From: a virus | IMG/VR virus record: IMGVR_UViG_3300027710_000017 | Span: 29,085-93,084 of that record | Direction: 5' to 3' (one strand) | DNA: 64,000 nucleotides | Part shown: positions 51,086-60,628 of the stretch, piece by piece | Numbering within the stretch: the first letter of the stretch is position 1 | Layout: each line of letters opens with the position of its first letter | Position numbers and translations under genes: made by a program | The notes under the pieces: generated by a model | Seen by the model: only the letters and a program-made list of their open reading frames with translations | What the model was told of the DNA's origin: nothing | Databases searched by the model: none

Positions 51086-51211
51086 TTATACACGGTAGAC
51101 GCTTACAACATCTAGCATTGAGATACCTTCCTTAGCTAGGTAGAATCCCCAGTTATCTCCTGGGTAAATCTCAACTTTTCCATTTGTAAAGGTAATCTGG
51201 ACTTTTTCCAT
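51086..51211 (-). CDS. 41-aa early protein
   Basis: MEKVQITFTNGK...; RBS AGAAAGGA. Confidence 0.6.
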   Translation of the reverse strand: MEKVQITFTNGKVEIYPGDNWGFYLAKEGISMLDVVSVYRV

Positions 51212-51254
51212 TTTACACTTCCTTTCTATTTATCTAATCTTTCTTTATACCTTT

Positions 51255-51276: not shown

Positions 51277-51372
51277 TTTATGCCACTTTTACAAGGTATT
51301 TCTATACAAACTTTTACCCTGTTTTTTGTAGGTATTTACAGTAATTGCGACACGCCCGACGCCGTGCGCCAC

Positions 51373-51460: not shown

Positions 51461-51490
51461 TTTAGTAAGCCAAAAGAAAGGAAACAACAA

Positions 51491-51631
51491 ATGGACAAGA
51501 TGTGTGTTTACTGTGAGAGCGTATTCTCACCTGATACTATTGTTTGCCACAACTGTAATGAGTATGATGGGATGATGCCCCTAGAGTCTGCCATCGACTA
51601 CCTCAACCTTGACCCTAACGACTTCCTATAA
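51491..51631 (+). CDS. 46-aa Zn-ribbon protein
   Basis: CVYC...CHNC; RBS AGAAAGGA. Confidence 0.7.
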   Translation: MDKMCVYCESVFSPDTIVCHNCNEYDGMMPLESAIDYLNLDPNDFL

Positions 51632-53200: not shown

Positions 53201-53284
53201 ACTTGACAAGTCCACCGAAAGGTGGGCGCACCAGATCTTGATCCATAAGTCAAATTAAGAAACGTTTAAGAATGCCCTTGAAAA

Positions 53285-53306
53285 TGTCCTAGGGTAATGG
53301 TATAGT
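53285..53306 (+). promoter_or_regulatory. PafBC-type variant promoter with overlapping TTGAAA -35
   Basis: TGTCCT-N10-TATAGT. Confidence 0.65.
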
Positions 53307-54050: not shown

Positions 54051-54075
54051 TCTCATGCTATAGGGGCATGTAAAC

Positions 54076-54140
54076 TGTAGGTCCCTTGTTATATCCTTTC
54101 TTAGGGATCTACACGTCCTGGCCACGACGTCAAACTGGCC
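54076..54140 (+). ncRNA. anti-SD-loop hairpin plus H-type pseudoknot
   Basis: Stem GTAGGTCCCT/AGGGATCTAC with loop ...TCCTTTCT; then ACGTC-CT-GGCCA-C-GACGT-CAAAC-TGGCC. Confidence 0.6.
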
Positions 54141-54232
54141 ACAAAAGCGGCGCACCAGATTTGCCAGGGAAAGTAAAGCTTATGAAGATAACGATTTCCC
54201 CCCCCGAATCGTTATAAAAAGATGGTTGATAA

Positions 54233-54254
54233 TGTCGGTGGTATAGGCTACAAT
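54233..54254 (+). promoter_or_regulatory. PafBC/RecA-NDp-type promoter with TTGATA -35
   Basis: TGTCGG-N10-TACAAT. Confidence 0.78.
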
Positions 54255-54320
54255 GGTGGTATCAACAAAAGTTGGTAATCAAATAGACAAATCCTAGCTC
54301 TGCTAGGTGATAGGAAGCAA

Positions 54321-54473
54321 ATGTCAAACGCAACCCTAACTGTTGGCTCACAGTTCACTACTCTAAAGAGTGGTGTATCAGGCACAATTCAGGAAGTAGT
54401 AGAAAACAAGAACGGCTCTTTCCGAGTCCGTCTTGATGTAAACGGACAGCCACGCTGGACTACTGTAAAGTAA
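54321..54473 (+). CDS. 50-aa SH3-like protein
   Basis: Manual translation MSNATLTVGSQF...RVRLDVNGQPRWTTVK. Confidence 0.7.
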   Translation: MSNATLTVGSQFTTLKSGVSGTIQEVVENKNGSFRVRLDVNGQPRWTTVK

Positions 54474-54552
54474 TCTAGTTAGTGTTAGTGGCGTTAGACT
54501 ACATAAAAGGGTGAATCAGAGTCTATTAGAAATACCCTGCCACTTTCACAAA

Positions 54553-54574
54553 TGTCATACCCCACCCCTATAAT
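54553..54574 (+). promoter_or_regulatory. PafBC-type variant promoter
   Basis: TGTCAT-N10-TATAAT. Confidence 0.65.
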
Positions 54575-54607
54575 AGTAATACCCTAACAAGAAAAGGAAA
54601 ACAAACT

Positions 54608-55051
54608 ATGGCAAGAAGCCTGTCAGTAAAAATCCCAACCGCAAAACTAATCGCAGATGTAGAGCAGTCTATCGCTAAGATAGATACCGCTATTGCTGAG
54701 TATGCTGATAAGCGTAAGCAGTATGAAACAGAAATCAAGCAGTATGACCTAGACATTGTTGCTCACGCTATCAAGGCTATGTCAGACCCAAGTAATGTTG
54801 GAACAGAACACGGCTCTCTAGTTCGTGTATCAAGAGGATACAACGGAAACATTTCTGTTGATTTTGATGTTGAGGCACTTGGACTACCAGCAAAGCCAGT
54901 AGAGCCAGCAAGACCAAATGAGAAAAGTTATTTTGGTCGTGAGTATGCTACACGCAAAGAAATCCTAGAGCGTAATCTTCGTATCCTAAAGATGACAACT
55001 CAAGAGGAGATTTCAGCAAGTTCTTACTCTGCTGTTATTGACCTTATCTAA
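54608..55051 (+). CDS. hypothetical coiled-coil early protein
   Basis: RBS AGAAAAGGA. Confidence 0.8.
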   Translation: MARSLSVKIPTAKLIADVEQSIAKIDTAIAEYADKRKQYETEIKQYDLDIVAHAIKAMSDPSNVGTEHGSLVRVSRGYNGNISVDFDVEALGLPAKPVEPARPNEKSYFGREYATRKEILERNLRILKMTTQEEISASSYSAVIDLI

Positions 55052-55091
55052 CTTAGGGAAAGACCCCTGCCTAGCAGGTATAACGCCCGAA

Positions 55092-55119
55092 GCAACCTAA
55101 GCAAGTTGTAAAACTGCTT
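55092..55119 (+). ncRNA. H-type pseudoknot
   Basis: GCAAC-CT-AAGCA-A-GTTGT-AAAAC-TGCTT. Confidence 0.55.
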
Positions 55120-55249
55120 CCACTCCCCTCCAAAAGCTGAAGGATCTTTGATCCACAAATACTGTGAGGGGAAAAAGTGGGCGCACCGCATTTTCGTTAC
55201 CAAACTGTTATTTATGATGACTAATTATTTTGCCCCGAATCGTTGACAA

Positions 55250-55271
55250 TGTCGGAGGGTAGCCCTATAAT
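55250..55271 (+). promoter_or_regulatory. PafBC/RecA-NDp-type promoter with TTGACA -35
   Basis: TTGACA-A-TGTCGG-N10-TATAAT. Confidence 0.8.
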
Positions 55272-55310
55272 TAGACTATTAGTAATCCAACCCTAAAGAA
55301 AGTAGATAAC

Positions 55311-56321
55311 ATGGCACATTTGCTAGAATCCGTAAACGGAGAAACCGCATTTGCTTCACTCAGAGAGCCAGCTTGGCATGGTCTAGGAACTGTATTCACT
55401 GAGGAAGTTTCAACAGCCGAGATGTTGAAGAAAGCTAAACTAAATAACTGGAATGTTCGCTTGGAAGATGTAGAGATTCCTACTGGCATGGATTCAGACA
55501 AGGGCTACTCTTTCGTAGTTCGTGATAACCCATTCACTAAGGGCAACAAGGACATTCTTGGTGTTGTTGGTGAGCGTTATGTTCCGCTTCAGAATGAGGA
55601 CTTGTTTGATTTTGCTGATAACATTCTAGACGCTGGTGGACGCTGGGAAACCGCTGGTTCCATCAAGGGTGGTCGAGTTGTATTCGGTTCTCTAGCTCTT
55701 GAGCGTGAAACAGTTCTTGACCCTAACGGCGTATCAGATAAGGTAAACAGTTATCTTCTAGTAAACACTAGCCATGACGGCTCTATCGCAATTCAGGCAA
55801 GCATTACACCTGTCCGAGTTGTATGTGCCAACACTCTAAACTTGGCACTTGGTAATCGTGGTCGTGGTGGTTCGGTAAAGCAGTCGTTCAAGATTCGCCA
55901 CACCCAAACTGCTAACGGCAAAGTTCAAGCAGCTCGTGAGGCTCTTGGCTTGGCTAATGCTTACTTAGATGAGTTCGACAAGATGGCAAACGAGATGATT
56001 CAGAATGAAGTTAGCAAGGCTAAGTTTGATGAAATTGTTTTGGCATTGTATCCAAAGCCTGAGAAAGATTCTAAGGGTGCTGTCAAGAAGTGGGAAACTA
56101 AACTAGACATCATCAACGGCATTTATGTTGGACAGTATAACGACACTATTGCTGGAACAGCTTGGGGTGTTGCTAACGCTCTAACTGAAAGACTAGACTG
56201 GTATCGTTCGGCAAGGGGTGGCAACAACGAATCCATTCTTGCTTCCGCTTCTGGGTTTGACCCAATGATAAACGCTGAGAAGAATAGAATCTTCAAGGCA
56301 GTTCAACTGGCAACAGCATAA
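55311..56321 (+). CDS. DUF932 / TIGR03299-family phage protein
   Basis: MAH...PAWHGLG...LQNE...ETAGSIKGG...SHDGS...TPVRVVCANTL...RHT. Confidence 0.9.
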   Translation: MAHLLESVNGETAFASLREPAWHGLGTVFTEEVSTAEMLKKAKLNNWNVRLEDVEIPTGMDSDKGYSFVVRDNPFTKGNKDILGVVGERYVPLQNEDLFDFADNILDAGGRWETAGSIKGGRVVFGSLALERETVLDPNGVSDKVNSYLLVNTSHDGSIAIQASITPVRVVCANTLNLALGNRGRGGSVKQSFKIRHTQTANGKVQAAREALGLANAYLDEFDKMANEMIQNEVSKAKFDEIVLALYPKPEKDSKGAVKKWETKLDIINGIYVGQYNDTIAGTAWGVANALTERLDWYRSARGGNNESILASASGFDPMINAEKNRIFKAVQLATA

Positions 56322-56326
56322 GCAAA

Positions 56327-56353
56327 AGTCCTGGGCATGACTAAAAACTGCCC
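56327..56353 (+). ncRNA. H-type pseudoknot
   Basis: AGTC-CT-GGGCA-T-GACT-AAAAAC-TGCCC. Confidence 0.6.
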
Positions 56354-56446
56354 ATCACCTATACTTGACACAGGATCAAAAACGTGGCGCACCTGGATAA
56401 CGAAACTATAACAAGTTTACGATACAGTTTAAGAATCCCTTGAAAA

Positions 56447-56468
56447 TGTCGGTGGCTACTGGTAAAAT
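56447..56468 (+). promoter_or_regulatory. PafBC/RecA-NDp-type promoter
   Basis: TGTCGG-N10-TAAAAT. Confidence 0.78.
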
Positions 56469-56492
56469 CTAGGTATAAAGAAAGGAATTCAA

Positions 56493-56615
56493 ATGGACGA
56501 GCAAGCAGAAGAAATTCGTGAGGCATTAGCTGAGTACTATGCCAACCCAGAAGACTACACCCTAGAAGACTTCGAAGAAATCTTTCAGGATAGGGACCCA
56601 TTCGAATTTCTATAA
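56493..56615 (+). CDS. 40-aa acidic protein
   Basis: RBS AGAAAGGA. Confidence 0.65.
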   Translation: MDEQAEEIREALAEYYANPEDYTLEDFEEIFQDRDPFEFL

Positions 56616-56637
56616 TGTCGGTGGTTCATGGTAAAAT
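56616..56637 (+). promoter_or_regulatory. PafBC/RecA-NDp-type promoter
   Basis: TGTCGG-N10-TAAAAT. Confidence 0.78.
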
Positions 56638-56661
56638 CCAAATAGACAACGAAAGGAAAAC

Positions 56662-56859
56662 ATGTCGCATTTACTAAATAACATTGGATACGTTTCTTAT
56701 GATGGAAACTATGGAGCAGAAGCGGACGTACTTGTGTTCGATACTGATTCACTTACCCTGCAGCAATGGGAAACCCTAGGTGAGCTAGATGACAACTCTA
56801 GGTATGACTATGTCGAAGCTATTTTTGCAGGTAAAGACCTATCTGAATGGGAGGGCTAA
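56662..56859 (+). CDS. hypothetical early protein
   Basis: RBS GAAAGGA. Confidence 0.7.
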   Translation: MSHLLNNIGYVSYDGNYGAEADVLVFDTDSLTLQQWETLGELDDNSRYDYVEAIFAGKDLSEWEG

Positions 56860-57212
56860 TGTTAGACGTATTGGAAATGGATTACAGGATTGATGAGTAT
56901 ACCAATGAGGCAAAGGGCATTGCTTGGGATACATGTCATAAAATCTATGTACTCATGGACGAGGAGCAAGTAGCGCTTCAAAGAAGTTATGGCTATGGTG
57001 ATGAGAATGACCCAGATAGCCTAATCACAAGTGAGCAGATGACTGGTGATGAAATGAGAAAGCAAGTCATGGACTGGTATCAGAAGTCTTGTGGCCTAAG
57101 ATTTATTTCAGCTGTTTCAACCGACACCAGGTTTGGTGATGACGGCTGGGTTCACATCATTAGTCAGTTTGAAGATACTGATGAAGATGAAGATGAGGAT
57201 GAAGACCTGTAG
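56859..57212 (+). CDS. hypothetical early protein
   Basis: WDTCHKIY...SCGLRFI, acidic tail; TAATG coupling. Confidence 0.75.
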   Translation: MLDVLEMDYRIDEYTNEAKGIAWDTCHKIYVLMDEEQVALQRSYGYGDENDPDSLITSEQMTGDEMRKQVMDWYQKSCGLRFISAVSTDTRFGDDGWVHIISQFEDTDEDEDEDEDL

Positions 57213-57273
57213 CGCATTCCCTTACTTCCTTTCTGGAATGTGCTACCGTCCTAGCTATGACGTAAAACTGGCT
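57211..57273 (+). ncRNA. anti-SD-loop hairpin plus H-type pseudoknot
   Basis: AGCGCATTCC/GGAATGTGCT stem, loop CTTACTTCCTTTCT; CGTC-CT-AGCTA-T-GACG-TAAAAC-TGGCT. Confidence 0.6.
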
Positions 57274-57354
57274 TTCCAGCAGGCGCACCACAATAATGGA
57301 TCAGTGTCAACAGTTTAAGAAGAATTAAGATTACTCCCCGAAACCCCTTGATAA

Positions 57355-57376
57355 TGTCAGTGGGTAGTAGTAAAAT
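57355..57376 (+). promoter_or_regulatory. PafBC/RecA-NDp-type promoter
   Basis: TGTCAG-N10-TAAAAT. Confidence 0.78.
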
Positions 57377-57404
57377 GATACTACCCGAAAGAAAGGAACC
57401 CCCA

Positions 57405-57905
57405 ATGGGAACCAGAAACCTAACAGTAGTAAAGAACAAAGCAGGACAAACCAAGATTGCTCAATACGGACAATGGGACGGATACCCAAGCTATTCAGGT
57501 ATTCAAGCTCTAGAGTTTCTAAGAGATGAAGGCAACCAAGCCTTACTACAAGCTAAGCTAGACCTTGTCCAGTTTGTTGGTGATGAGGAAGTAGATACGC
57601 TGTATAAGCAGTATGAGTCTACTGATTGGGAGAATAAGGAATTCCTAAACGCATACCCTGGCCTACACAGAGATACTGGTATTGACATCCTAAAGGTAGT
57701 TGCCAATGCTACTGCCACTATCAAGAGTGTAGATAATACAGAGTTTGCTAAGGATGAACTATTTTGTGAGGGTGTCTATGAGGTAGACTTCTCTACTAAT
57801 AAGTTTATTACTGTCTATGACAACAAGGTTGTTGAGTATGACTTGGATTCCTTGCCTAGTGATTCGGATTACCTAGCAGCGTTTGAGGTGGAACAGCTTG
57901 TTTGA
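57405..57905 (+). CDS. conserved phage protein (MGTR...QWDGYP family)
   Basis: MGTRNL...AQYGQWDGYPS; RBS AGAAAGGA. Confidence 0.8.
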   Translation: MGTRNLTVVKNKAGQTKIAQYGQWDGYPSYSGIQALEFLRDEGNQALLQAKLDLVQFVGDEEVDTLYKQYESTDWENKEFLNAYPGLHRDTGIDILKVVANATATIKSVDNTEFAKDELFCEGVYEVDFSTNKFITVYDNKVVEYDLDSLPSDSDYLAAFEVEQLV

Positions 57906-58073
57906 TAATCTAGATACCAAGTATGCCACAGGAAACATCGCAAAGGATGTTGAGTTTATCAAAGATAACCTTAGTATTGATGACAAAGAGTTCTTTAGAA
58001 GGGCTATGGCTAACATAATGTCTGAGGGTAATGCTAGAATTGACCTACTTACTGGAGAGGAACTGGAACAGCT

Positions 58074-58268
58074 ATGATGAAACTAACAAGCACAGACCTA
58101 AAGACTTGGCAGGTAGAGTATTCTGCAGCCTACTGGGTAGAAGCTACAAGTGAAGATGAAGCTATTGAAAAGGCTATGGAACAACACGCTGATTTGCCTG
58201 ACGGTAGCTGGGAAGCAATGATTGACCCCTATGATAGCAACAACTTCAATACCCTAGGAGAAAAGTAA
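58074..58268 (+). CDS. small acidic protein (VEA.SE.EA motif)
   Basis: Motif shared with 58673 ORF. Confidence 0.65.
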   Translation: MMKLTSTDLKTWQVEYSAAYWVEATSEDEAIEKAMEQHADLPDGSWEAMIDPYDSNNFNTLGEK

Positions 58269-58462
58269 TGGCAATGGCAAAGATAAGTATTGTCCTAGAG
58301 TATGACCTAGAAAACCATTTTCAAGAATTAGCGTATAAGCACCTAAAGACCGATACTATTATTGACGAACTAGAAGATAATGTGTATGAGGATTTACTAG
58401 ACCTAATGCGTGGAGATAGATTGCGTTCTTGGTCTTACTATGAGATAGTAGATGGGAAATAA
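58268..58462 (+). CDS. hypothetical early protein
   Basis: RBS AGGAG, coupled. Confidence 0.65.
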   Translation: MAMAKISIVLEYDLENHFQELAYKHLKTDTIIDELEDNVYEDLLDLMRGDRLRSWSYYEIVDGK

Positions 58463-58609
58463 TGGAACACGAATGCGTCCCACTTCTTGAAGGAGATGCC
58501 TGGTGTCTATGTGGAAAGGACCTGGACACCTAACCAGATCCCCCGAAAGGGGTGCGCCGATTCTTTTATAGATAATCTTATTAAACATAAAAATGTAATT
58601 AAGAAGCTC

Positions 58610-58638
58610 TTGACTTTTTCCCCAGATTGTGGGACAAT
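58610..58638 (+). promoter_or_regulatory. sigma70/SigA-type promoter
   Basis: TTGACT-N17-GACAAT with TGTGG. Confidence 0.55.
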
Positions 58639-58672
58639 TGAGTATCAAAGCCCCAACCCCATAGGAGATAAA

Positions 58673-58849
58673 TTGCCTTTATACAAAGTTCAAAGAGAAT
58701 ACACCAACTGGGAAGAGATTACAGTTGAAGCAGAATCAGAAGCGGAAGCCCTAGACCTCATGGAAGATGAAAGTATGTGGGAATACGCAACTGATGCCAG
58801 TACGTACAACTACACTGGTGAGACTTGGATTGGAGACTACGATGAGTAA
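58673..58849 (+). CDS. small acidic protein (VEAESEAEA)
   Basis: TTG start after RBS AGGAGA. Confidence 0.65.
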   Translation: MPLYKVQREYTNWEEITVEAESEAEALDLMEDESMWEYATDASTYNYTGETWIGDYDE

Positions 58850-58942
58850 ACACATGCACTACTTTAGTTATGGAGCCTGCATTCATTGTGGCAAGGTAGT
58901 CAATAAAGGATTGGGCGTAGACCTATTAAGAGGGAAGAGAGT

Positions 58943-59176
58943 ATGAGCCAGATTTATGTAGACAAGAAGCCTAGTGTAAAGGATACTACTTGGACCAGGA
59001 TCTTTCATTACAATACCGCCCAGGTTATGGAATCGGATCGCTACTATGACTTCTATAAGGCTGTAGTTGAAGGAGAGCGACCAAAGTATTTCTTTGGAGA
59101 ATCTGCATGGATGAATTGCCAACGATATGTAGTTGACAAAATTGGCATGCAGGGCTATAATGTATTTAGAAGATAA
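58943..59176 (+). CDS. hypothetical protein
   Basis: ORF; KYFFGESAW motif. Confidence 0.65.
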   Translation: MSQIYVDKKPSVKDTTWTRIFHYNTAQVMESDRYYDFYKAVVEGERPKYFFGESAWMNCQRYVVDKIGMQGYNVFRR

Positions 59177-59197
59177 CCCCGATAGAAAGCAGACCCC

Positions 59198-59740
59198 ATG
59201 CATGTATTACAATGGATAGCTACAGAAGCTGATAATAAAGATGAGGCCTATCGTAGAGTAGAAGATACTCTGCAGGAAATGCTAGGCGACTTTGAATTAC
59301 CAACCCTTACTTGGTATGACTGGTTTGTCGTAGGTGGCGGACGTTGGAATACTAAGGATGATGAAAGCGCTACTGCTGCCTACACTGAAGGTAAAACTAA
59401 TCTAATTATCTCCTATGATGAAAGTCCAGAACCTTTTCTAACTGGTATCCTAAGAGCATTGGAAGACCGTAAAGCTGAGTTTGATAACTATGCCAAAGAC
59501 GTAGACAGCAGTGTAATAGATAAGATAATCAAAGACTATAACCCTAAAGAGTTTGACTTCCCTGCATTTCAGTCTCTTTATGTTATCAAGAAGGTTATTG
59601 ACATGGCCTATGGCACATGGGATTTCAATGCATACTTTTATGACATGGTCAATGATACAACTACCCCAAAGTATTTGTATGAATCTATTGACAAAGGCAA
59701 CAAAAACTGGTATCTTGTACCTGTAGACTTTCATTTCTAA
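59198..59740 (+). CDS. conserved phage protein
   Basis: MH...WYDWFVVGGGRW...LVPVDFHF. Confidence 0.8.
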   Translation: MHVLQWIATEADNKDEAYRRVEDTLQEMLGDFELPTLTWYDWFVVGGGRWNTKDDESATAAYTEGKTNLIISYDESPEPFLTGILRALEDRKAEFDNYAKDVDSSVIDKIIKDYNPKEFDFPAFQSLYVIKKVIDMAYGTWDFNAYFYDMVNDTTTPKYLYESIDKGNKNWYLVPVDFHF

Positions 59741-59752
59741 GAGAGGACCCCA

Positions 59753-60160
59753 ATGCTAAAGTTTCCAGAAGTAAAGTATGTTGAGCTAACTTGGAAAGAG
59801 TTTGAGCAACAGTTTAGACCTATCAAAAATCACTTCCGTAAAGACCCAGACGAGATTATGTTTGAGACCTATGGTGAGGAGCTAGACTTTGTTGTATCTA
59901 AAGTAGAGGACAATGTTGTTTGGACCTATGCTGATGGTGATTACTGTTCCTATGTTAGTGGAGGCTATCACTATGTAAACAGGATTGGCTATTACATTAC
60001 CGAGGTCCCTATGGAGAAAGACACAGAGTATCAGATTATCGTAAGCACCGAAGAAGAGTGTGAGTGTTACAACGAGGAAGGTTATGAAGATGGAGAAATG
60101 GGCAGAGCCGATTGTGAAAAATGCGAGGGGTATGGACTTGTCACTAACTACGTCGACTAG
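59753..60160 (+). CDS. hypothetical protein with C-terminal Zn finger
   Basis: GYHYVNRIGYYITE; CEKCEGYG. Confidence 0.75.
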   Translation: MLKFPEVKYVELTWKEFEQQFRPIKNHFRKDPDEIMFETYGEELDFVVSKVEDNVVWTYADGDYCSYVSGGYHYVNRIGYYITEVPMEKDTEYQIIVSTEEECECYNEEGYEDGEMGRADCEKCEGYGLVTNYVD

Positions 60161-60497
60161 AAACCAAAACAAAGATAAGACGCATATTGTCTATGACCTA
60201 AACATCTACCAGCTAGAGCAGTTGGACTCAGATGGTGAGTACAGACATTTTGGCCCATGGTATATACATGTCTATGAATATGAAAACAGTAACATCGAAG
60301 AAGTTACAGCTCCAATAGAGTTAACTCAGGAGGAGTACGATAGTCTTATTGCTAATGACCCATACTTTGACGAGCCAGACGTATGGTATGGCCTAGAAGG
60401 ATTTCTATTTGAAAAGTGGGACCAGCTGGACGATCGTTTAAAGATGGTATTTGAATGTCTACCCAAGTACAAGGAAGATGCATTAGTAGATAACTAA
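60138..60497 (+). CDS. hypothetical acidic protein
   Basis: 3' part of track ORF 60060..60497; start uncertain. Confidence 0.55.
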   Translation: MSLTTSTRNQNKDKTHIVYDLNIYQLEQLDSDGEYRHFGPWYIHVYEYENSNIEEVTAPIELTQEEYDSLIANDPYFDEPDVWYGLEGFLFEKWDQLDDRLKMVFECLPKYKEDALVDN

Positions 60498-60599
60498 ATA
60501 AGGATTGATACGTCGAGCCTAGCTCCGTATCATGGATAACTGGTTAGGGGTAGCCAGGGTATCCGAACGGGGTGTCAGGACTCTTTCCTACTTTCAGTC

Positions 60600-60628
60600 T
60601 TGACACCCCAACTAATTTTTGATACAAT
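60600..60628 (+). promoter_or_regulatory. sigma70/SigA-type promoter
   Basis: TTGACA-N17-TACAAT, with the -35 lying in the 3' arm of a 14-bp hairpin. Confidence 0.7.

Follow-up and report, generated by a model that had tools for sequence, protein, structure and literature searches.

Pyrimidine-loop hairpins behind early genes of an uncultured phage carry loops complementary to early ribosome-binding sites

The window analysed here is a 64,000-nucleotide (64-kb) stretch of phage DNA (positions 29,085 to 93,084 of IMG/VR virus record IMGVR_UViG_3300027710_000017) that forms the end portion of a 93-kb linear contig with a G+C content of ~40%. In its early region three hairpins with large pyrimidine-rich loops stand 3' of genes, and two of the loops are complementary to the GAAAGGA-type ribosome-binding sites (RBSs) used by many early genes. 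Comparison with related loci supports the view that the hairpins are genuine RNA-level structures of the sense strand with loops that appear to have been selected. We propose that they are 3'-untranslated-region (3'-UTR) anti-RBS hairpins that would repress early-gene translation, a reading to which we give about an even chance. The hairpins and the elements attached to their 3' sides are these:

54076-54113, + strand: hairpin 1, 11 bp including one G.U pair, with a 16-nt loop containing AUCCUUUCUU; -15.1 kcal/mol, z -4.3
54114-54140, + strand: 27-nt H-type pseudoknot fused to hairpin 1 (P1 CGUC/GACG, L1 CU, P2 GGCCA/UGGCC, A-rich L3)
57209-57246, + strand: hairpin 2, 12 bp including one G.U pair, with a 14-nt loop containing UUCCUUUCU; -16.6 kcal/mol, z -6.6
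57247-57273, + strand: 27-nt H-type pseudoknot fused to hairpin 2 (P2 AGCUA/UGGCU)
60569-60609, + strand: hairpin 3, a 14-bp G+C-rich stem with the 13-nt loop CUUUCCUACUUUC; -23.6 kcal/mol, z -5.0
60610-60620, + strand: U-rich tail AACUAAUUUUU 3' of hairpin 3, terminator-like in shape

All three loops are unpaired in minimum-free-energy folds. Each stem holds a G.U pair, and because these pairs become A.C in the complement, the antisense of each hairpin folds worse than the sense strand. A blind scan of both strands of the 93-kb contig for stems of at least 8 bp (at least 4 of them G-C) closing loops of 9-24 nt with at least 80% pyrimidine returned exactly three matches, hairpins 1-3, all on the gene-sense strand of the early region. 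The word TCCTTTCT occurs four times on the + strand, twice in hairpin loops and twice as the RBSs of minus-strand genes. The hairpins begin 0-72 nt 3' of stop codons with no promoter-like site in between, the stem of hairpin 2 taking in the TAG stop of open reading frame (ORF) 56847-57212, and across the hairpins and their homologues a stop codon always lies 5' and a promoter, pseudoknot or U-run 3'. Five U residues begin 6 nt past the stem of hairpin 3, as U runs likewise do in its homologues in two related loci (L084 and L085); hairpins 1 and 2 have no U-tract, and each abuts its pseudoknot without a gap. An earlier reading of this DNA made from the letters alone (the sequence-only reading) had placed three pyrimidine-loop hairpins here, and refolding and the blind scan both recovered them, its second (57211-57244) being the inner part of hairpin 2. 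Its claim that the first two are fused to a pseudoknot also holds, with pseudoknots abutting at 54114 and 57247.

Relatives were taken from IMG/VR contigs, 80 loci fetched via GP88 and three via the gene preceding hairpin 3. The hairpin 3' of GP88 is kept in place in 13 loci (among L003-L015 and L017) on four unrelated stem types with an unchanged loop core, and hairpin 2, which follows the gene of an acidic protein, is kept in L003, L004 and L005 near 9920. Additional homologues stand after other genes and are followed by a pseudoknot, a promoter (6 nt away in class-C) or a U-run. An alignment of ~35 distinct copies shows CUUUC to be invariant and UCCUUUCU near-invariant on more than 20 stem sequences that share nothing with each other; the stems are G+C-rich and 7-14 bp long, and their pairing is kept despite complete sequence turnover. 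Conservation of the loop on changing stems, which the sequence-only reading had offered as a check on itself, is thus what these homologues display. Of 76 distinct sense-strand TCCTTTC sites, 33 (43%) fall in loops with a closing stem of at least 8 bp, compared with 25 of 324 antisense sites (8%) and 0-10% for composition-matched control 7-mers. Homologues of hairpin 3 at L084:1933 and L085:1952 carry UUAUCCUUUCUU or UUAUACCUUUCUU in their loops, and so have the UCCUUUCU core, and the hairpin 3 loop type UUCCUACUUUC recurs in five loci (L016, L021, L023, L024 and L027). An exact 14-mer loop-word scan of IMG/VR was uninformative, the matches listed being unrelated A+T-rich contigs with no G+C-rich stems.

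In the window, GAAAG-type RBSs precede 16 of 28 early starts as against 1 of 40 late starts, which bears out the earlier statement that early genes use an RBS type complementary to the loops, and five early genes have exactly AGAAAGGA as their RBS. Early translation initiation regions (TIRs) are stronger partners of the hairpin 1 and 2 loops than late ones are (mean -7.8 vs -5.4 kcal/mol, Mann-Whitney p ~0.001-0.002), and these loops pair more strongly than shuffled loops. Complementary RBSs in the window include these:

51217-51227, - strand: RBS of ORF 51086-51211, an 11-nt complement of the hairpin 2 loop; duplex -16.0 kcal/mol
51475-51483, + strand: RBS AGAAAGGAA of the ORF starting at 51491, a 9-nt complement of the loops
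56479-56487, + strand: RBS AGAAAGGAA, ORF starting at 56493; hairpin 2 closes this cassette
57390-57398, + strand: RBS AGAAAGGAA followed by CCCCCAAUG, ORF starting at 57405, 3' of hairpin 2

The 11-nt match between the hairpin 2 loop and the RBS of the 51211 ORF, singled out by the sequence-only reading, is real, but as a specific target it is no better than chance, because ~30 similar RBSs make a 2-nt extension of a common 9-mer expected. The same reading held that many late genes are leaderless and would be immune. A TAnnnT box lies 5-8 nt before the ATG, the leaderless pattern, in about six late genes; other late minus-strand genes have AGGAG or GGAGG Shine-Dalgarno (SD) sequences, and late genes would largely escape pairing by either route. 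At the minus-strand late starts 19841, 39761, 40427, 40949 and 48162 an extended -10 element (TGGTATAAT or similar) stands 6-7 nt before the ATG, again the pattern of leaderless mRNAs.

Among the relatives, loop and RBS flanks change jointly by clade. In five loci (L006, L013, L014, L015 and L017) the loop of the GP88-tail hairpin reads UAUCCUUUCU followed by AACUAAC, and in each of these loci 2-7 early genes (GP88 included) have an RBS with AGUUAG in front of it (AGUUAGAAAGGAUA), giving perfect complements of 14-16 nt. Complements of 10-18 nt between the loop and GP88's own leader are found in L012 and L015, the pairing in L015 extending over 18 nt with two G.U pairs. No AGUUAG-preceded RBS occurs in the window, L003, L016 or L019-L033, whose loops are without the AACUAAC extension. 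The class-C loop of L010 complements CGAAAGGAUAAAUAA(AUG), the RBS plus the spacer to the start codon, over 15 nt. Complementarity in relatives therefore reaches the RBS flanks, AGUUAG upstream and the AUAAAUAA spacer downstream, and goes beyond the 16S rRNA 3' end. Because these extra paired positions lie outside the reach of that end, the selected partner of the loop is more likely to be an mRNA initiation region than a factor recognising the 16S tail. The 16S tail ending in CCUCCUUUCU that the sequence-only reading assumed fits the tails of B. subtilis (PMC6107228) and mycobacteria (PMC12274833), and the loop does complement early RBSs as that reading proposed; rather than a 16S anti-SD mimic, it is better described as an anti-RBS element matched to phage TIRs, since in relatives pairing runs beyond 16S reach.

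From these patterns we infer pairing in vivo, repression by that pairing, and the ends of the transcripts, which together make up the following model. The hairpins would belong to the 3' ends of early transcription units, each with a stop codon before it and the next promoter after it, and their large single-stranded loops would act as anti-RBS seeds for the GAAAGGA-type SD regions of phage early mRNAs. Pairing could take place in cis, if the tail of a transcript loops round to its 5' leader, or through a 3'-UTR-derived fragment acting in trans; it would block 30S binding and thereby limit or shut off early-gene translation, and late genes would escape through their leaderless-like or GGAG-type sites. 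The stem may double as a terminator or 3' stabiliser, the 3' end being defined or protected in hairpins 1 and 2 by the fused pseudoknot and in hairpin 3 by the U-tail, and the latter half of the initiation region (CCCCUAUG) may be covered by an adjacent G-loop hairpin, described below. If the pairing is true, an uncultured clade of actinobacterial-type phages from freshwater and the subsurface would brake early translation via mRNA tails with no protein repressor, and the RBS dialects of these phages (GAAAGGA early; GGAG or leaderless late) would be tied to temporal control. A stronger form of the model has abundant 3'-UTR-derived hairpin-pseudoknot RNAs acting in trans on all GAAAGGA-led early mRNAs and, together with the G-loop hairpin, covering SD, spacer and start codon, so that early-to-late shut-off would be achieved by RNA only while leaderless and GGAG-led late genes escape; this we regard as tentative and rather doubtful. 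Such a shut-off would be the RNA counterpart of that exerted by phage T4 RegA.

Several observations weigh against repression by loop pairing. Within the window, loop complementarity amounts to a 9-nt core (11 nt at one site), as any 16S-tail-like sequence would show, and the loop of hairpin 3 there has lost the UCCUUUCU core. Many relatives (L030-L082) have the identical RBS type and no such hairpin, and L016 has none after GP88. The joint changes of loop and RBS are few, clade-level events with relatedness not controlled, and an inverted duplication of an RBS could found a loop of this kind without function. For an effect in trans, 2-3 hairpins facing ~16 target sites raise a concern of stoichiometry.

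Much of the same evidence can be read in other ways. A stop codon on one side and the next promoter on the other, stems that are rich in G+C and 7-14 bp long, the U runs after hairpin 3 and its homologues, and a cassette layout like that of the promoter early stem-loop (PeSL) terminator-promoter cassettes of T4-like phages would all suit hairpins that are only terminators or 3'-end stabilisers. The pyrimidine loop would then have been retained on other grounds, efficient termination or the loading of a factor for instance, and its resemblance to an anti-RBS would be without regulatory effect. Usual terminator loops are short and unconstrained, however, whereas those seen here span 13-23 nt and keep an invariant core across turned-over stems; their extensions track clade-specific RBS flanks, and hairpins 1 and 2 have no U-tract, so that we consider a purely terminating role unlikely. 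An invariant loop on variable stems is also the usual signature of a hairpin bound by protein, and the early region is rich in small ORFs without assigned function, either of which would be in keeping with a protein-recognition site, for example one for a translational repressor made by the phage, for an antiterminator or for a host protein with affinity for pyrimidine-rich RNA. No RNA-binding domain was found among ten early proteins scanned, though, and since loop length and flanks vary in step with the RBS flanks, base pairing is the simpler account; we think a protein site highly unlikely.

Two further explanations start from the resemblance of the loop to the 16S tail. As the sequence-only reading proposed, abundant processed small RNAs (sRNAs) could mimic the 16S 3' tail and soak up SDs generally, host mRNAs included, favouring leaderless late genes: the loop core is identical to the final 8 nt of the actinobacterial and Bacillus-type 16S tail (PMC6107228, PMC12274833), several late genes look leaderless, and the fused pseudoknot could stabilise a fragment. 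Such a sponge seems to us quite improbable: the loops have no CCUCC core for pairing with GGAGG-type SDs and bind GGAG-type late TIRs weakly, the complementarity seen in relatives tracks flanks peculiar to the phages rather than 16S, and only 2-3 copies exist per genome. The hairpin might instead be a decoy or sensor for host toxins cleaving the anti-SD tail of 16S rRNA (MazF-mt3 at U^CCUU, MazF-mt6 at UU^CCU, or RelE1-like), protecting ribosomes in abortive infection. Actinobacterial toxins do target exactly that tail (PMC12274833; PMC12620021), the mycobacterial one being cut at C^ACCU, 11 nt from the 3' end (PMC12274833), and single-stranded UCCUU is present in the loops (that of hairpin 3 of the window excepted), with UUCCU in hairpin 2. 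Yet a cleavable substrate at 2-3 copies would be a poor inhibitor, the window's hairpin 3 loop is without UCCUU, and the clade-specific loop extensions match RBS flanks, not 16S, which makes a decoy scarcely credible.

Anti-RBS pairing was also set beside three narrower candidates, each of which was rejected. A minus-strand RBS or ORF reading of the loops finds no start codon at a workable distance and is at odds with the sense-only G.U pairs; a role as readthrough or frameshift stimulators would gain at hairpin 2 an in-frame extension past 57212 of 13 codons to the next stop; and loop pairing with a neighbouring conserved purine tract of the same intergenic region is not kept in L003. Rfam gave no gathering-score match in the whole window, and only chance-level matches at E up to 10 within 51-62 kb.

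Two of the pyrimidine-loop hairpins are preceded by small hairpins with G-rich loops:

54054-54070, + strand: small hairpin with a G-rich loop (AUAGG(GG)), 4 nt past the GP88 stop and 5 nt before hairpin 1
60540-60557, + strand: small GGGG-loop hairpin, 11 nt 5' of hairpin 3

The ATAGGGG of the first is unchanged across 10 orthologous loci, and tandems of the hairpin 3 type, with the GGGG-loop hairpin first and other stems, occur in L016, L021, L023, L024, L027, L084 and L085. Altogether the arrangement of a GGGG-loop hairpin 5-11 nt 5' of a pyrimidine-loop hairpin is seen in 16 of 43 distinct cases and has two independent positions, one following GP88 and one preceding hairpin 3. Downstream of GP88 the AUAGGGG loop is complementary to CCCCUAU(G), a spacer and start (CCCCUAUG) common among these TIRs, and CCCC[TA]ATG is found in these phages 177 times in sense and 45 times in antisense orientation. 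The order of G-loop then pyrimidine loop is antiparallel-colinear with a TIR of AGAAAGGA..CCCCUAUG, as exemplified by the ORF at 57405; a bipartite arrangement in which the two loops cover one TIR is suggestive only. An alternative RNAalifold pairing of AGGGG with the loop CCUUU, a possible loop-loop contact, was set aside as weak (5 bp, two G.U). At 54188-54215, just before the promoter at 54226, stands a further A+U-rich hairpin of 9 bp whose loop consists of eight C (UCCCCCCCCG); it is kept in L003, and its loop could pair with GGGG loops.

The pseudoknot is not confined to the hairpins. Two more copies stand alone in the window:

55093-55119, + strand: pseudoknot-only copy, after ORF 54608-55051
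56327-56353, + strand: pseudoknot-only copy, 5 nt past the stop of the DUF932 gene

The 93-kb contig holds four copies, compared with 0.46 expected in shuffles, and a structure-defined pattern scan of the related loci found 178 sense copies and one antisense copy in which P1 and P2 vary with pairing kept. In these loci the pseudoknots lie 5-10 nt 3' of stop codons; some closely precede an RBS or stand immediately 5' of a tRNA. An exact-pattern scan (NNNC-CU-GAGCA-W-GNNN-NNAAAC-UGCUC) of one GTDB genome per prokaryotic species matched at least 118 contigs, against an estimated chance yield of ~2. Among the matches listed, which come from Saccharibacteria, Aminicenantes, Firmicutes, Actinobacteria, Proteobacteria, Patescibacteria and a DPANN archaeon (loci L196-L275), P1 again varies with pairing kept, and the pseudoknot usually follows a stop codon by 5-10 nt and is often just 5' of hammerhead-like cores, the DUF2800 RNA (RF02960), tRNAs, RBSs or U-runs. 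No Rfam 15 model matches the pseudoknot in other genomes, and a literature search with its sequence as a string returned nothing relevant. The preQ1-I riboswitch, which is alike in fold type and AAAC tail, was considered and rejected: where the riboswitch has a multi-nt L2 with a conserved C that pairs the ligand, L2 is here a single variable nucleotide (A, U or C) in ~150 copies, and RF00522 gives no match to the pseudoknot at E up to 10. The element looks like an undescribed, very widespread RNA motif, and since it habitually sits just 5' of RNA-processing sites, its distribution suggests a 3'-end cap or punctuation element, which would fit a stable hairpin-pseudoknot fragment. In several contigs that do not look like phage, a conserved mini-ORF of ~20 codons (MK(R/K)F..VPR.AHC.EGC...) ends within the pseudoknot, its UGA stop being the UGA of the pseudoknot's CCUGAGCA (L198, L207, L213, L222, L223, L246, L249, L252, L270 and others).

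The hairpins belong to a region, 51.4-62 kb, in which small + strand genes are arranged in cassettes of a promoter, 1-3 ORFs, structured RNA elements and the next promoter, the stem-loop and promoter layout recurring about every 1 kb. The early promoters have the form TGTC-N3-G-N8-TAnnnT, more fully (TTGAYA)-ATGTC-RGTGG-N8-TAnnnT, at twelve sites between 51439 and 60660. This form resembles what we take to be the actinobacterial PafBC/RecA-NDp DNA-damage motif, of which we confirmed only that such a motif is described. The GP88 (PF17338) and DUF932 proteins of the early region are ~56% identical to terminal-repeat proteins of Streptomyces BE-cluster phages, cultured phages gave no megablast match to 53.3-58 kb, and the sequencing runs listed as containing this DNA are all DNA metagenomes, from subsurface, lake and estuary. 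The GGAG-type SDs and TAnnnT boxes of the late genes would fit an actinobacterial host.

Other repeats accompany the cassettes. TTACGA/TTAAGA repeats (often TTACGACACG) lie just 5' of early promoters at 53255-53302, 56417-56464 and 57325-57372, and in related loci too, and a related box, CGACACGCCCGA..GTGCGCC, is found at 51348 and 52418. Eight exact copies of GGCGCACC all fall within 52-61 kb (53225, 54149, 55180, 56386, 57282 and 61144 on the + strand; 52433 and 58551 on the - strand), usually 10-40 nt 3' of a pseudoknot and often 17 nt 3' of TTGACA. Other lineages have different G+C-rich boxes (GGGCCGAGGGC, GGCGCTCC) in its place, often with GATC just before, and GGCGCACC as a component of an RNA element was set aside as lineage-specific (window and L003-L005 only).

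The phage hairpins share features with several known systems. Like intrinsic terminators they place a G+C-rich stem past a stop codon, with a U-rich tail at hairpin 3; they differ in loops of conserved sequence, 13-16 nt in the window and 13-23 nt overall as against the usual 3-8 nt, and hairpins 1 and 2 run into a pseudoknot instead of a U-tract. A terminator scan did not list hairpins 1-3. The PeSLs of T4-like phages show the same repetition of a stem-loop and a close early promoter between small early ORFs of a variable region, in another host clade and with other sequences, and are reportedly terminator/promoter and recombination modules rather than anti-RBS regulators. In RNAIII hairpins (the terminator hairpin included), RsaE/RoxS and the actinobacterial 6C RNA, loop seeds pair with SDs without Hfq, and a terminator hairpin can itself carry a seed. 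No sequence or Rfam relationship to these C-rich-loop sRNAs emerged from the window scan; the phage seed is of mixed U and C (UCCUUUCU), tuned to GAAAGGA-type RBSs, and apparently part of a 3' UTR rather than a separate gene. In S. aureus, the icaR 3'-UTR motif UCCCCUG pairs with the SD region of its own mRNA in cis or in trans, blocking initiation and creating an RNase III substrate, and the same paper mentions UCCC-motif sRNAs of this species (PMC3868564). The phage arrangement is alike in that a pyrimidine motif 3' of a gene complements an SD region, the GP88 hairpin of relatives matching the GP88 leader over 10-18 nt; it differs in that the motif is displayed by the loop of a strong hairpin, which stands a few nt past the stop and is fused to a pseudoknot or U-tail, in that it matches several early genes and recurs across cassettes, and in that it belongs to a phage rather than a cell. 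If the pairing is true, a phage example with natural compensatory variation would join the few bacterial 5'UTR-3'UTR and 3'UTR-sRNA anti-SD systems.

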